Source of the DNA: Escherichia coli
GTDB taxonomy: Bacteria > Pseudomonadota > Gammaproteobacteria > Enterobacterales > Enterobacteriaceae
Length of the DNA: 64,000 nucleotides
Assembly (NCBI RefSeq): GCF_009931435.1
Contig: NZ_CP043414.1
Direction: 5' to 3' (one strand)
Shown piece after piece: positions 35,253 to 38,074 of this stretch. The position numbers and the translations under genes were made by a program. Under the pieces are notes generated by a model. That model was not told the origin of the DNA, did no database searches, and worked only from the letters and a program-made list of their open reading frames with translations. How positions within the stretch are numbered: the stretch's first letter is position 1; every line of letters starts with the position of its first letter.

Positions 35253-35660
35253 CTATTTGCTCATCATCTTGCGCACCAGCTGCATAAACAGCTCCTGCTC
35301 TTCTCCACTCAAACGCCCCAAAAATTCCTCATCCACACTGTCGCCAATCGGTATCGCCGCAGCAAGTACCTTTTCTCCTTCGGCAGTCAGCCAGACAAAG
35401 CGTCGCCGCTTATCAGCGGTGTCATGTTCACGTCTGACTAAGCCACGATTTTCCATTCTTGCCAACATTTCTGCCAGCGTTGCTTTGGTGCTGACGGCTG
35501 CTTCCATCAGTGCCACCTGTTCGATACCAGGTTTATCAGCAATGGCGCGCATCACCGCGTACTGTGGTTTGGTCAGGTCAGGTAACTCGTGCTGCCAGCG
35601 GGCCGTATGCTGCTGAAAAAGCTGTCGTAACTGATGGAACGCTTTATTTCGTAACGCCAT
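35253..35660 (-). CDS. MarR-family transcriptional regulator (135 aa)
   Basis: ORF track; winged-helix MarR-like sequence, divergently transcribed from the UbiX/UbiD-type operon. Confidence 0.8.
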   Translation of the reverse strand: MALRNKAFHQLRQLFQQHTARWQHELPDLTKPQYAVMRAIADKPGIEQVALMEAAVSTKATLAEMLARMENRGLVRREHDTADKRRRFVWLTAEGEKVLAAAIPIGDSVDEEFLGRLSGEEQELFMQLVRKMMSK

Positions 35661-35775
35661 GTAAACTCCGGGCTAATTCTCTGTCGCTATCATAGCGGTT
35701 TTTCAGTGACGAAGAAGATGTTGTTACTTTTCAATCCTTGCCGCTGTGGAAATGAAGGAGTATGTTAATAATAAC

Positions 35776-35789
35776 GTTCGTATACGAAC
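35776..35789. promoter_or_regulatory. Perfect 14-bp palindrome GTTCGTATACGAAC, candidate operator
   Basis: Sits about 18 nt upstream of the ecdB ATG in the MarR/ecdB divergent region. Confidence 0.4.
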
Positions 35790-35806
35790 AATTAAGAGAG
35801 TAAGCA

Positions 35807-36400
35807 ATGAAACTGATCGTCGGGATGACAGGGGCTACCGGTGCGCCTCTTGGTGTGGCATTACTGCAAGCGTTGCGCGAAATGCCGGATGTCGAGACTC
35901 ATCTGGTGATGTCGAAGTGGGCGAAAACCACTATTGAACTGGAAACGCCTTACAGCGCTCGCGATGTTGCCGCCCTCGCTGACTTCAGCCATAACCCGGC
36001 GGATCAGGCTGCGACCATCTCTTCCGGCTCCTTTCGTACCGACGGCATGATCGTTATTCCATGCAGTATGAAAACGCTCGCCGGTATCCGCGCTGGTTAC
36101 GCCGATGGTCTCGTAGGGCGCGCGGCGGACGTCGTGCTCAAAGAAGGCCGCAAACTGGTGCTGGTGCCGCGTGAAATGCCGCTTAGCACCATCCATCTCG
36201 AAAATATGCTCGCACTTTCGCGCATGGGCGTGGCGATGGTGCCGCCGATGCCTGCCTTTTATAACCATCCCGAAACGGTAGATGACATTGTCCACCACGT
36301 GGTAGCCCGCGTGCTGGATCAATTTGGCCTCGAACATCCTCACGCCAGGCGCTGGCAAGGGTTGCCGCAGGCCCGGAATTTTTCTCAGGAGAATGAATAA
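35807..36400 (+). CDS. ecdB: UbiX-family flavin prenyltransferase, partner of the UbiD-type decarboxylase (197 aa)
   Basis: ORF track; MKLIVGMTGATGAPLGV... flavoprotein fold typical of UbiX/Pad1. Confidence 0.85.
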   Translation: MKLIVGMTGATGAPLGVALLQALREMPDVETHLVMSKWAKTTIELETPYSARDVAALADFSHNPADQAATISSGSFRTDGMIVIPCSMKTLAGIRAGYADGLVGRAADVVLKEGRKLVLVPREMPLSTIHLENMLALSRMGVAMVPPMPAFYNHPETVDDIVHHVVARVLDQFGLEHPHARRWQGLPQARNFSQENE

Positions 36401-37827
36401 TGGCATTTGATGATTTACGCAGCTTCTTACAGGCGCTTGATGACCACGGCCAGTTACTGAAAATCAGCGAAGAGGTGAACGCGGAACCGGATCTGGCAGC
36501 CGCTGCCAACGCCACCGGGCGTATCGGCGACGGCGCGCCCGCGCTGTGGTTTGATAATATTCGCGGCTTTATCGATGCCCGCGTTGCAATGAACACCATC
36601 GGTTCCTGGCAGAACCACGCAATTTCTCTCGGTCTGCCGCCAAACACCCCGGTTAAAAAACAGATTGATGAGTTTATCCGCCGCTGGGATAACTTCCCGA
36701 TAGCCCCGGAGCGCCGTGCGAATCCTGCCTGGGCGCAGAACACCGTCGATGGCGACGAGATCAATTTGTTCAATATCCTGCCGCTGTTTCGTTTAAACGA
36801 TGGCGATGGCGGTTTCTATCTCGACAAAGCGTGCGTGGTTTCCCGCGATCCGCTCGATCCGGATAACTTCGGCAAGCAGAACGTCGGCATCTATCGCATG
36901 GAAGTGAAGGGTAAGCGTAAGCTCGGCCTGCAACCGGTGCCGATGCACGATATCGCCCTGCATCTGCATAAAGCGGAAGAACGTGGTGAAGATTTGCCAA
37001 TTGCCATCACGCTGGGTAACGATCCGATCATCACCCTGATGGGCGCCACCCCGCTGAAATATGATCAATCGGAGTACGAAATGGCGGGCGCGCTACGCGA
37101 AAGCCCGTACCCGATCGCCACCGCCCCGCTGACCGGTTTTGATGTGCCGTGGGGTTCAGAAGTGATCCTCGAAGGGGTTATCGAAAGCCGCAAACGTGAA
37201 ATCGAAGGGCCGTTCGGTGAGTTTACCGGGCACTACTCCGGTGGGCGCAACATGACCGTAGTGCGCATCGATAAAGTCTCTTACCGCACCAAACCGATTT
37301 TTGAATCGCTCTATCTCGGCATGCCGTGGACCGAAATCGACTACCTGATGGGGCCTGCCACCTGCGTGCCGCTTTACCAGCAGTTGAAAGCCGAGTTCCC
37401 GGAAGTGCAGGCGGTGAACGCTATGTACACCCACGGCCTGCTGGCGATTATCTCCACCAAAAAACGCTATGGCGGCTTTGCCCGCGCAGTGGGCCTGCGT
37501 GCGATGACCACGCCGCACGGTCTGGGTTATGTGAAGATGGTGATTATGGTCGATGAAGACGTTGACCCGTTCAACCTGCCGCAGGTGATGTGGGCGCTCT
37601 CTTCGAAAGTGAACCCGGCAGGGGATCTGGTGCAGTTGCCGAATATGTCAGTACTGGAACTCGACCCTGGCTCAAGCCCGGCGGGGATCACCGACAAGCT
37701 GATTATCGACGCCACTACGCCTGTCGCCCCGGACAACCGTGGTCACTACAGCCAGCCGGTGGTGGACTTACCGGAAACCAAAGCCTGGGCTGAAAAACTG
37801 ACCGCTATGCTGGCCGCACGTAAATAA
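36400..37827 (+). CDS. ecdC: UbiD-family (prenylated-FMN-dependent) aromatic acid decarboxylase, subunit C (475 aa)
   Basis: ORF track; start overlaps the ecdB stop; UbiD-family length and sequence. Confidence 0.85.
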   Translation: MAFDDLRSFLQALDDHGQLLKISEEVNAEPDLAAAANATGRIGDGAPALWFDNIRGFIDARVAMNTIGSWQNHAISLGLPPNTPVKKQIDEFIRRWDNFPIAPERRANPAWAQNTVDGDEINLFNILPLFRLNDGDGGFYLDKACVVSRDPLDPDNFGKQNVGIYRMEVKGKRKLGLQPVPMHDIALHLHKAEERGEDLPIAITLGNDPIITLMGATPLKYDQSEYEMAGALRESPYPIATAPLTGFDVPWGSEVILEGVIESRKREIEGPFGEFTGHYSGGRNMTVVRIDKVSYRTKPIFESLYLGMPWTEIDYLMGPATCVPLYQQLKAEFPEVQAVNAMYTHGLLAIISTKKRYGGFARAVGLRAMTTPHGLGYVKMVIMVDEDVDPFNLPQVMWALSSKVNPAGDLVQLPNMSVLELDPGSSPAGITDKLIIDATTPVAPDNRGHYSQPVVDLPETKAWAEKLTAMLAARK

Positions 37828-37837
37828 GGAGAACAAG

Positions 37838-38074
37838 ATGATTTGTCCACGTTGTGCCGATGAACAGATTGAAGTGATGGCGAAATCGCCGGTAAAAGAT
37901 GTCTGGACGGTCTACCAGTGCCAGCATTGCCTTTATACATGGCGCGATACTGAACCGCTACGCCGCACCAGCCGCGAACATTATCCCGAAGCCTTCCGCA
38001 TGACGCAGAAAGATATTGATGACGCGCCGATGGTGCCGAGCATCCCGCCGCTGCTGGCGGAAGGTAAGCGCTAA
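37838..38074 (+). CDS. ecdD: Small zinc-ribbon subunit D of the phenolic acid decarboxylase complex (78 aa)
   Basis: ORF track; MICPRCADEQ...YQCQHCLYTW carries four Cys in CxxC...CxxC spacing. Confidence 0.75.
   Translation: MICPRCADEQIEVMAKSPVKDVWTVYQCQHCLYTWRDTEPLRRTSREHYPEAFRMTQKDIDDAPMVPSIPPLLAEGKR

Follow-up and report, generated by a model that had tools for sequence, protein, structure and literature searches.

An intact hosA-vdcBCD hydroxyarylic acid decarboxylase locus between rpoS and ygbN of Escherichia coli

Results and Discussion

Gene content of the rpoS-ygbN interval

The window, by which we mean the whole 64-kb stretch of DNA analyzed here, carries a divergent regulator gene and a three-gene operon between rpoS (end at 35132) and ygbN (minus strand, end at 38113). 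The genes and the elements at the edges of the interval are as follows.

35146..35179 (+), rpoS intrinsic terminator, a terminator-like hairpin with a T-run; left edge of the DNA common with K-12-type genomes (alignment to the K-12-type L001 ends at 35178)
35179..38073 (no strand), 2,895-bp block not in K-12-type E. coli, the classic '2.9-kb' segment of the mutS-rpoS polymorphism (window and L001 compared by pairwise BLAST)
35204..35245 (no strand), REP-like palindromic element between the rpoS terminator and the hosA 3' end, read from the sequence
35253..35660 (-), hosA, MarR-family repressor and 4-hydroxybenzoate sensor (Pfam MarR and near-identity to crystallised HosA)
35807..36400 (+), vdcB (ecdB / kpdB / pad1), UbiX-family flavin prenyltransferase making prFMN (NCBIfam VdcB, PDB 1SBZ)
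36400..37827 (+), vdcC (ecdC / kpdC / yclC), UbiD-family prFMN-dependent hydroxyarylic acid decarboxylase (NCBIfam VdcC, three UbiD Pfam domains, 7AE4)
37838..38074 (+), vdcD (ecdD / kpdD), zinc-ribbon activator subunit of VdcC (NCBIfam VdcD, ShdD of 7AE4)
38072..38109 (no strand), bidirectional terminator hairpin common to vdcD (+) and ygbN (-), an inverted repeat (I3) with 18-nt arms; right edge of the block, kept in K-12

An ORF check of the window found all four ORFs of the cassette intact at these coordinates. The vdcB stop codon and the vdcC start codon overlap by one base (TAATG), and AGGAG precedes the start of vdcD. A search of Rfam gave no RNA family match within the cassette. The element at 35204..35245 presumably belongs with the REP sequences, whose consensus it seems to resemble.

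Assignment of the four proteins

A previous reading made from the sequence only (the sequence-only reading) had assigned the divergent gene to the MarR family, and the product proved to be specifically HosA. It matches the Pfam models PF01047 (MarR; 48 bits, cut-off 24.6) and PF12802 (40 bits, cut-off 27), and aligns with seven PDB entries, 8AGA among them (E = 2e-82), 130 of 134 residues being identical to 8AGA and four different. Residues F8, H9, F15, H18 and K31, which were named by a structural preprint (2024), are all carried by HosA of the window.

The same reading had proposed an operon of a flavin prenyltransferase, a UbiD-family decarboxylase and a zinc-ribbon subunit, and all three products scored above the curated cut-offs of the corresponding NCBIfam models. 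VdcB matches NF041206 (312.6 bits against 290) and TIGR00421 (245.8 against 108.9), passes the UbiX subfamily models as well, and aligns over its full length with PDB 1SBZ, Pad1 of E. coli O157:H7 (E = 8e-129). VdcC matches NF041204 (788.4 bits against 650) and the three UbiD domain models PF20695, PF01977 and PF20696, and residues 3-471 align with ShVdcC of 7AE4 over the full length (E = 6e-160). VdcD matches NF041205 (121.2 bits against 30) and ShdD of 7AE4. Together the solved relatives (1SBZ, the C and D chains of 7AE4, and HosA 8AGA) gave E-values from 1e-11 to 1e-160.

The motifs NVGIYR (161), MHD (182), EYEMAG (225) and EGPFGEF (269) are present in VdcC, and the spacing of N161-x4-R166, H183, E225/E227 and E269-GPFG-E274 is like that of the presumed counterparts N168, R173, H191, E233, E277 and E282 of Fdc1. 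These residues of VdcC may thus include the catalytic E-R-E triad and the ligands of metal and prFMN. In VdcD, two CxxC knuckles (Cys 3, 6, 28 and 31) coincide with C3, C6, C28 and C31, the zinc ligands of ShVdcD described together with the biochemistry of VdcCD (Marshall et al. 2021, PMC8379154).

Several other assignments were discarded. The BagM/FevK model of the bagremycin cluster gave VdcB a higher score that was yet under its cut-off (342.5 against 420); BagL/FevM of the same cluster, also a best-scoring NCBIfam match in the operon, was likewise under its cut-off, and VdcD matched DUF1062 weakly and below the cut-off. VdcC reached 174 under the UbiD equivalog model, whose cut-off is 788, and was therefore not assigned as the housekeeping UbiD. 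Cofactor-free phenolic acid decarboxylases of the PadC/PadR type had no Pfam or NCBIfam match among the four proteins; the name 'phenolic acid decarboxylase' fits the cassette only in the UbiD/prFMN sense.

The operator and the putative promoters

The following elements were recognized in the 146-bp region between hosA and vdcB.

35685..35697 (no strand), CGCTATCATAGCG, with the conserved core TAT(C/G)ATAG, candidate -10 element of hosA (reading TATGAT on the strand of that gene); invariant columns in the 12-genus alignment, role inferred
35738..35743 (+), TTGCCG, candidate -35 element of the vdcBCD promoter; TTG invariant in the 12-genus alignment, 17 nt upstream of a conserved TAnnnT
35761..35766 (+), TATGTT, candidate -10 element of the vdcBCD promoter; GTA..TT invariant in the 12-genus alignment, transcription start predicted near 35773
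35776..35789 (no strand), GTTCGTATACGAAC, perfect 14-bp palindrome and HosA operator, unique in the window and the same as published probes; about +3 to +17 of the predicted operon transcript

The perfect palindrome noticed by the sequence-only reading directly upstream of the operon lies 17 nt before the operon ATG, and its suggested role as a MarR operator agrees with the published HosA site (PMC6261655, Table S1; PMC6694116). The published probe, TTAATAATAAC-operator-AATTAAGAGA, is identical to the window sequence, flanks included. Note that in the machine-read supplement (PMC6261655, Table S1) some probes are printed as GTTTCGTATACGAAC, with an extra T, while another probe there is the exact 14-mer and the text gives 14 bp. 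Within the 64-kb window, GTTCGTATACGAAC is the only perfect HosA site, and no further HosA-like site was found at up to two half-site mismatches in the window or at up to three mismatches nearby. Perfect 14-bp palindromes as such are not rare in the window (three observed against about five expected in Markov-1 simulations), although only about 0.01 would be expected within the intergenic region. Because the operator (TTCG/CGAAC) is kept in 80/80 related loci of other species, in more than 20 enterobacterial genera, the palindrome is, on this comparative evidence, far beyond chance.

The operator sits just downstream of the conserved TTGCCG-17 nt-TATGTT arrangement. This candidate vdcBCD promoter was placed by phylogenetic footprinting alone, and we infer the exact transcription start from it; a strict sigma-70 consensus scan of 35100-38200 called no promoter, at 35761-35766 included. 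We also considered CGCTATCATAGCG as a second HosA operator, but it is without GTTCG/CGAAC half-sites; its core, about 25-35 nt from the hosA start codon on the hosA strand, is more likely to be the -10 element of hosA. A second, weaker operator was found in Enterobacter, Klebsiella, Kluyvera and Lelliottia, directly next to the -35 element and at a distance of 56-57 bp upstream from the main one; it is absent from Escherichia, Citrobacter and Salmonella.

Direct binding of HosA to operator dsDNA, reversible by 4-hydroxybenzoate (4-HBA), has been demonstrated by gel shift and biolayer interferometry (PMC6261655; PMC6694116). In gel shifts 4-HBA frees HosA from the 14-bp palindromic site, the KD for 4-HBA being 4.7 uM (PMC6261655), and structural analogues of 4-HBA fail to release it (PMC6694116). 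For the operator and the release by 4-HBA both papers cite Roy & Ranjan 2016 (Biochemistry 55:1120); according to a preprint that summarises this work, HosA represses the HAD operon and hosA itself from a site downstream of the transcription start. Since release by 4-HBA was established for HosA of UMN026 (PMC6261655; PMC6694116), the allele of the window is expected by analogy to behave as the published HosA. HosA and the GTTCGTATACGAAC operator are already in use as a 4-hydroxybenzoate biosensor.

Distribution of the cassette

The sequence-only reading had located the cassette in the polymorphic rpoS-mutS interval and described it as missing from K-12, and both statements hold: the known mutS-rpoS polymorphism includes this gene arrangement as pattern IV (Ewers et al. 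2014, PMC4209514), and the rpoS-ygbN gap of MG1655 is only 93 bp. The presence/absence comparison that it had proposed as a check found the cassette in 2,380 of 5,426 complete E. coli genomes (about 44%) and not in MG1655, a genome being counted as a carrier when at least 80% of the block was present. A further 1,974 genomes, all cassette-less, share with the query only a 39-bp match at the right-edge terminator. The K-12 junction falls exactly between the two flanking terminators, and nothing within the cassette corresponds to its filler, CTGTGCACA. Earlier work on the mutS-rpoS / o454-nlpD polymorphic region is said to have been done by LeClerc, Herbelin, Culham & Wood.

The same placement of hosA-vdcBCD, with rpoS on one side and mutS on the other, occurs in Escherichia albertii, E. 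whittamii, Citrobacter, Klebsiella, Enterobacter, Kluyvera, Kosakonia, Lelliottia, Atlantibacter, Mangrovibacter and others. Among 80 loci, rpoS is less than 1 kb from hosA in 46 and mutS is less than 2.5 kb from vdcD in 49. In 79 of them hosA is divergent from the vdc genes and the high-affinity operator lies 15-63 nt from the operon start; the 80th (L078), in which no vdc gene showed, was outside the operon-distance count. The identity of HosA drops with taxonomic distance, from 93-96% in other Escherichia to 70-81% in other Enterobacteriaceae and about 60% in Rahnella. Because the position is conserved across genera, the comparison indicates that the cassette between rpoS and mutS is ancestral in Enterobacteriaceae and was deleted in K-12-like strains, and that it is not a recent arrival.

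Compared with the typical E. coli allele, vdcC has 80 nucleotide but only 5 amino-acid differences (94.4% identical, about 5.6% divergent), and because of this ratio we judge that it is under purifying selection. VdcC is also unusually conserved across genera, with a median amino-acid identity of 96% against 93% for MutS.

Comparison with known systems

The locus shares gene order, operator and probe flanks with the published E. coli HosA locus, and the alignment of VdcB with O157:H7 Pad1 is full-length; only allelic changes distinguish the cassettes. The O157:H7 cassette directly adjoins pphB-mutS; in the window ygbN-ygbI separate the two. There is no structural difference from pattern IV of the E2348/69 type (rpoS - slyA-like (hosA) - kpdB - kpdC - kpdD - o454 (ygbN)).

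The B-C-D order, a prFMN-dependent UbiD-type C subunit and a zinc-ribbon D subunit are common to VdcBCD, ShdBCD, BsdBCD (YclBCD), KpdBCD and EcdBCD. The Bacillus bsd operon is under the control of the LysR-type BsdA; unlike it, enterobacterial vdcBCD is controlled by a divergent MarR protein, HosA. PcaV of Streptomyces coelicolor (PDB 4FHT; E = 5e-16), the next-best solved relative of HosA, is a MarR repressor that is likewise released by a hydroxybenzoate (protocatechuate), but its sequence similarity is much lower and its targets are genes for ring cleavage (pca), not for a decarboxylase. The housekeeping UbiX and UbiD of ubiquinone biosynthesis belong to the same two enzyme families as VdcB and VdcC, with UbiX supplying prFMN to UbiD, but they are encoded by unlinked genes, act on a prenylated substrate and have neither a D subunit nor HosA.

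According to the literature, the B-subunit homologues are prFMN synthases, both the C and the D subunit are required, and activity depends on prFMN. Decarboxylases of the VdcBCD type act on 4-hydroxybenzoate and vanillate (Lupa 2005; Marshall et al. 2021, PMC8379154), as reported for homologues from Klebsiella, Sedimentibacter and Bacillus, and kpdBCD converts 4-HBA to phenol. The structurally characterised enzymes of this type are from Firmicutes and not from E. coli.

Interpretation and alternatives

We consider it highly probable (about 0.93) that the cassette is the hosA-vdcBCD locus, known also as HAD, ecdBCD, kpdBCD or pad1-yclC, and that it is a ligand-inducible detoxification or catabolic module. 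When no inducer is present, a HosA dimer on the single operator GTTCGTATACGAAC, immediately downstream of the vdcB promoter, would block transcription. Plant phenolics or hydrolysed parabens would supply 4-hydroxybenzoate, which would bind at the dimer interface and take HosA off the DNA, and the translationally coupled vdcBCD operon would then be expressed. VdcB would prenylate FMN to prFMN, and the zinc ribbon of VdcD would hold VdcC in its active form. With prFMN, VdcC would reversibly convert 4-hydroxybenzoate to phenol and probably also vanillate to guaiacol.

Other readings concern the regulator and its site. HosA might be mainly a global or virulence regulator of motility and temperature response, and the decarboxylase operon would then count among its minor or incidental targets. 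EPEC motility work, reportedly by Ferrandiz et al. in 2005, speaks for this, and a preprint also ties HosA to motility in EPEC. However, the divergent linkage of hosA and vdc in 79/80 loci with the operator in all 79, the vdc operator as the sole perfect site of the window, and the identity of the HosA ligand with the substrate of the enzyme make such a role improbable as the main one, although HosA targets besides the vdc operon may exist. It is scarcely credible that the palindrome is instead an RNA or DNA hairpin, an attenuator or terminator that binds no protein. A terminator scan does pick it out, as a minus-strand 6-bp stem with TTATTATT behind it, and with a transcription start near 35773 it would fall in the 5' UTR, but the stem is short (5-6 bp), the palindrome is upstream of both divergent genes, so that there is nothing to terminate, and the published 4-HBA-reversible binding of HosA was to dsDNA with this palindrome. 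We dropped the terminator call for its position and the binding data.

The origin of the cassette has also been seen differently. A 2024 preprint asserts horizontal acquisition, and a recently acquired island ('from Shigella') inserted by rpoS in pathogenic E. coli would agree with the patchy spread within the species and with a mosaic region in which vdcC is 94.4% and ygbN 99.6% identical to the typical alleles. We find this very unlikely, since hosA-vdcBCD occupies the same place between rpoS and mutS in many other genera, HosA identity tracks taxonomic distance, and the K-12 junction between both terminators is as a deletion would leave. The block contains neither an integrase nor an insertion sequence, and searches for direct and inverted repeats found nothing at its edges. 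Vertical inheritance with loss is thus favoured over acquisition. It is a further step, unlikely although conceivable, to regard the cassette not as an accessory module by which pathogens scavenge but as a near-core ancestral locus with VdcC under housekeeping-level constraint, whose regulation changed in Escherichia, Citrobacter and Salmonella when the second site was lost. If so, it would have an unrecognised role, such as in the intracellular 4-hydroxybenzoate pool feeding ubiquinone synthesis, or in anaerobic phenol carboxylation.

Identifying hosA-vdcBCD in the window is correct but ordinary and has little discovery value, as publications already cover the locus and its regulator, ligand and operator, as well as the enzyme chemistry, the crystal structures and the distribution among strains; the presence/absence survey, gel shifts with and without phenolic acid, and decarboxylase assays that the sequence-only reading had suggested are also in the literature. 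Its practical value is that the window is confirmed to hold an intact and presumably functional copy. The favoured vertical inheritance and loss, the conservation of VdcC and the second operator in many genera outside Escherichia are modest additions. Two further features of the surroundings were observed: the adjacent rpoS has a premature stop codon, and the window also bears a rare pphB-TPR-mutS allele.

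Gene content and identity of the cassette

The cassette between rpoS and ygbN is the known hosA-vdcBCD system itself and not a relative of it; every defining feature open to sequence-based testing was found. It comprises hosA, which encodes a MarR repressor, and the divergent vdcBCD operon (also ecdBCD, kpdBCD or pad1-yclC; the HAD operon). The ORF list and the raw sequence match exactly the MarR gene and three-gene operon described in the sequence-only reading:

35146-35179, rpoS terminator, left neighbour of the cassette
35253-35660, minus strand, MarR ORF (hosA), 135 aa
35807-36400, plus strand, first operon ORF (vdcB), 197 aa
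36400-37827, plus strand, second operon ORF (vdcC), 475 aa
37838-38074, plus strand, third operon ORF (vdcD), 78 aa
38072-38109, hairpin that also ends the convergent ygbN, right neighbour of the cassette

No frameshift or internal stop was found in any of the four genes, and the hosA-vdcB intergenic region, taken from the ORF list and the raw sequence, is 146 bp. Because the vdcB stop and the vdcC start overlap (TAATG), and vdcD, 10 nt beyond the vdcC stop, is preceded by AGGAG, the three operon genes look translationally linked. Within the block that K-12 lacks, an imperfect REP-like palindrome (GCCTGGATAAGACACGTCAGCGTCCCATCCGGC, 35204-35245) separates the rpoS terminator from the 3' end of hosA.

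The predicted functions of flavin prenyltransferase, UbiD-family decarboxylase and zinc-ribbon subunit were borne out by the NCBIfam models for subunits B, C and D of 'non-oxidative hydroxyarylic acid decarboxylase', with scores above the curated cut-offs for VdcB (312.6 against 290), VdcC (788.4 against 650) and VdcD (121.2 against 30). The regulator matched only generic or below-cut-off MarR models in NCBIfam, and Pfam was in agreement (MarR; Flavoprotein; UbiD_N, UbiD and UbiD_C). VdcB gave a full-length match to 1SBZ, the E. coli O157:H7 'Pad1' dodecamer (E 8e-129), and VdcC aligned end to end with 7AE4, the Sedimentibacter vanillate/4-hydroxybenzoate decarboxylase VdcC (E 6e-160). VdcC carries the motifs N161-VGIY-R166, H183, E225/E227 and E269-GPFG-E274. 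Their spacing fits the metal-binding and E-R-E catalytic residues of Fdc1, to which we presume they correspond. VdcD matched the ShdD chain of 7AE4, and its cysteines at positions 3, 6, 28 and 31 are those that ligate zinc in ShVdcD (PMC8379154). Judged by its sequence, the MarR protein is HosA: seven PDB entries titled 'Transcriptional regulator HosA' matched it (130 of 134 residues identical), and F8, H9, F15, H18 and K31, the residues highlighted in the ligand-bound HosA structure (2024 structural preprint), are all there.

Operator and candidate promoter

The palindrome proposed as a candidate MarR operator (GTTCGTATACGAAC, 35776-35789, 17 nt 5' of the operon ATG) is the known HosA operator, with the same sequence as the published gel-shift site. 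It occurs only once in the window; perfect 14-bp palindromes are no rarity, with three observed in 64 kb against about five expected, and only about 0.01 would be expected in the hosA-vdcB intergenic region. Recombinant HosA from E. coli UMN026 was assayed with 'a 43-bp DNA containing the 14-bp TFBS of HosA', a site termed palindromic, and in gel shifts 4-hydroxybenzoate (4-HBA; KD 4.7 uM) dissociated the complex (PMC6261655; 2018, Science Advances). The probes in Table S1 of that paper (...TTAATAATAAC-GTT(T)CGTATACGAAC-AATTAAGAGA..., and a further probe ...TTGTTCGTATACGAACGTTATTA) correspond to 35765-35799 of the window; some rows, as read by machine, show one T more, which does not fit the 14 bp given in the paper and is probably a text-extraction artefact. 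The gel shift was repeated in PMC6694116 (2019, Nature Communications), where the close analogues methyl-paraben, p-aminobenzoate, p-hydroxybenzyl alcohol and tyrosol did not release HosA. Both papers cite Roy & Ranjan 2016 (Biochemistry 55:1120), which, in the account given by a structural preprint, found that HosA represses its own gene and the HAD operon, with several-fold de-repression by 4-HBA. In the same account the palindromic site is 3' of the transcription start, which suggests a roadblock.

An alignment of 12 genera revealed two conserved blocks 5' of the operator, TTG of TTGCCG (35738-35743) and, 17 nt on, TAnnnT of TATGTT (35761-35766), which we read as the putative operon promoter; a scan for strict consensus promoters missed it. 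Transcription would therefore start near 35773, with the operator at about +3 to +17, in agreement with the published description.

A HosA scan using one genome per species yielded 80 loci, from Escherichia (albertii, whittamii and cryptic clades), Citrobacter, Salmonella (arizonae and diarizonae), Klebsiella, Enterobacter, Kluyvera, Kosakonia, Lelliottia, Leclercia, Pseudocitrobacter, Phytobacter, Atlantibacter, Cedecea, Mangrovibacter, Rahnella, Erwinia, Leminorella and others. GTTCG-N4-CGAAC with at most one half-site mismatch is present in the window and in 79 of the 80 loci, usually 15-19 nt 5' of the first operon gene; the 80th (L078), in which no vdc gene was seen, was left out of the site analysis. 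In the site-anchored alignment, TTCG and CGAAC occur in 80/80 sequences (the window and 79 loci), a figure that is partly circular through the selection criterion, but by chance a 170-bp region would hold a site of this kind with a probability of only about 0.005 per locus. Variation within the site is confined to the central YRYR, and conservation drops sharply in the flanking columns.

A second HosA-like site, GATCG-YRYR-CGAAC, abuts the -35 at a fixed 56-57 bp 5' of the main operator in Enterobacter, Kluyvera, Lelliottia, Leclercia, Pseudocitrobacter and Pluralibacter, with a weaker form (GGCCG...) in Klebsiella (loci L007, L009, L017-L020, L025, L027, L030-L032, L035-L038, L040, L042-L057, L061 and L064). 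It was not found in the intergenic regions of the window, Escherichia, Citrobacter and Salmonella; those of the three genera are 10-25 bp shorter. This site may be new or at least under-reported.

A substrate-induced operon is the model with the best support. HosA on +3 to +17 would block transcription until 4-HBA binds and releases it; VdcB would then supply prenylated FMN (prFMN), as B-subunit homologues do in boosting UbiD-type decarboxylases, and a VdcC hexamer decorated with VdcD would decarboxylate 4-HBA and vanillate. The reaction depends strictly on VdcD, which serves as an allosteric activator close to the E-R-E loops (PMC8379154). The HosA block and its release by 4-HBA were demonstrated with UMN026 proteins, and prFMN synthesis, decarboxylation and the conversion of 4-HBA to phenol (by Klebsiella kpdBCD) with homologues; from near-identity, we infer that the window allele behaves identically. 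That the palindrome serves as an RNA hairpin is poorly supported, the same sequence being the DNA bound by HosA in gel shifts; poorly supported too is the idea that HosA is mainly a global regulator, and its operator stands before the vdc genes in 79 loci.

Distribution and origin

The presence/absence comparison proposed earlier was run with a 2,973-bp query against 5,426 complete E. coli genomes, with presence defined as at least 80% coverage. The cassette is present in 2,380 (44%), every time on the chromosome; 1,974 genomes share only the last 39 bp of the query (the ygbN-side terminator), and about 1,070 have nothing in common with it. As the sequence-only reading stated, it is absent from K-12 MG1655, where the ygbN-rpoS gap is 93 bp; a K-12-type genome aligns with the window up to 35178 and again from 38074, with 8 unrelated bases between. 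The rpoS-mutS interval is indeed polymorphic, with four arrangements in Ewers et al. 2014 (PMC4209514): pattern I in O157:H7 (without ygbN), II in K-12, III in B2 strains and IV (rpoS, slyA-like, kpdB, kpdC, kpdD, o454/ygbN) of the E2348/69 type. The window has pattern IV, and we confirmed that in O157:H7 the cassette lies directly against pphB-mutS.

A convergent rpoS lies at most 1 kb from hosA in 46 of the 80 loci; a further 20 have rpoS at some other place in the locus, and mutS is at most 2.5 kb from vdcD in 49 of the 80. Loci with neither neighbour are mostly from outside Enterobacteriaceae proper (Rahnella, Erwinia, Leminorella), of uncertain placement (Superficieibacter, an Enterobacteriaceae isolate) or on a short contig. 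HosA identity follows taxonomy, and neither mobility genes nor repeats were found at the block edges; that the cassette is a recent horizontal island is poorly supported. The simplest reading is that the ancestral order was rpoS-hosA-vdcBCD-mutS, that the ygb/otn genes were inserted later in E. coli, and that K-12-like lineages lost the cassette by deletion. An older view of 'gene conservation and loss' is in line with this. The reading contradicts a 2024 preprint, in which the cassette was 'acquired from Shigella'.

In a 'Citrobacter sp.' metagenome-assembled genome, a 6-kb contig (DXKH01000072.1, locus L002) carries hosA and the intergenic region 99-100% identical to the window, and the same genome also holds another copy that is Citrobacter-like (L015, 78%); the bin was probably contaminated with E. 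coli, the source of the short contig.

Sequence conservation

The window's vdcC differs from a typical E. coli allele at 80 nucleotides but at only 5 amino acids, a mark of strong purifying selection. The window allele diverges by 5.6% in nucleotides, nearly all synonymous, from the common allele (comparison records L082, L083 and L084) and is more than 99% identical to those of a few strains (2013C-4282, N96); therefore, two old cassette allele classes circulate in E. coli. Among 70 non-Escherichia loci, VdcC is exceptionally conserved (median identity to the window protein 96.4%; MutS 93.3%, VdcD 91.0%, VdcB 87.8%, HosA 72.9%). The genes vdcC-vdcD come straight after hosA in Pluralibacter, Superficieibacter, Cedecea, Mangrovibacter, some Rahnella and Erwinia endophytica (L047, L062, L063, L066, L072, L077, L079 and L081); without vdcB, these organisms presumably use the housekeeping UbiX for prFMN. 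The VdcC conservation and the vdcB-less arrangement may each be new or at least under-reported.

Other features of the window

Adjoining the cassette, rpoS (34140-35132) has a premature TAA at codon 42 (34263-34265; ...GAT TTG GCC TAA GAG GAA...), whereas the reading frame of the 330-aa alleles annotated for other strains continues past this point. The stop divides the ORF into 34140-34265 and a remainder of 277 aa that begins with GTG (34299-35132), and the gene is probably a null or attenuated allele of a kind often met in both laboratory and natural isolates.

A CRISPR-Cas locus of type I-E, predicted to be complete, occupies 14310-23990, with a cas3-like ORF of 885 aa (14310-16967), cse/cas genes to about 22900 and an array at about 22925-23990 (repeat GTGTTCCCCGCGCCAGCGGGGATAAACCG, 61-bp period); gene identities are putative, based on the sizes of the ORFs and the gene order of K-12. 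A sok antitoxin RNA (Rfam RF01794; 13778-13934, plus strand; 103 bits, gathering score 59), located between the cas3-like ORF and the one at 12759-13655, presumably marks a chromosomal hok/sok-type locus.

The segment of pphB, a TPR/Sel1-like protein gene (44842-45705) and mutS (44163-48366, minus strand) is a rare allele, matched at 95% or more by only 18 of about 5,420 E. coli records and by most at 90-95%; no more than 282 genomes have the TPR-containing arrangement at a query coverage of 80% or higher. Its mutS is about 94% identical to that of O157:H7, the neighbouring ygbN-ygbI is more than 99% identical to common alleles, and a sharp mosaic boundary separates the two sides near 44790.
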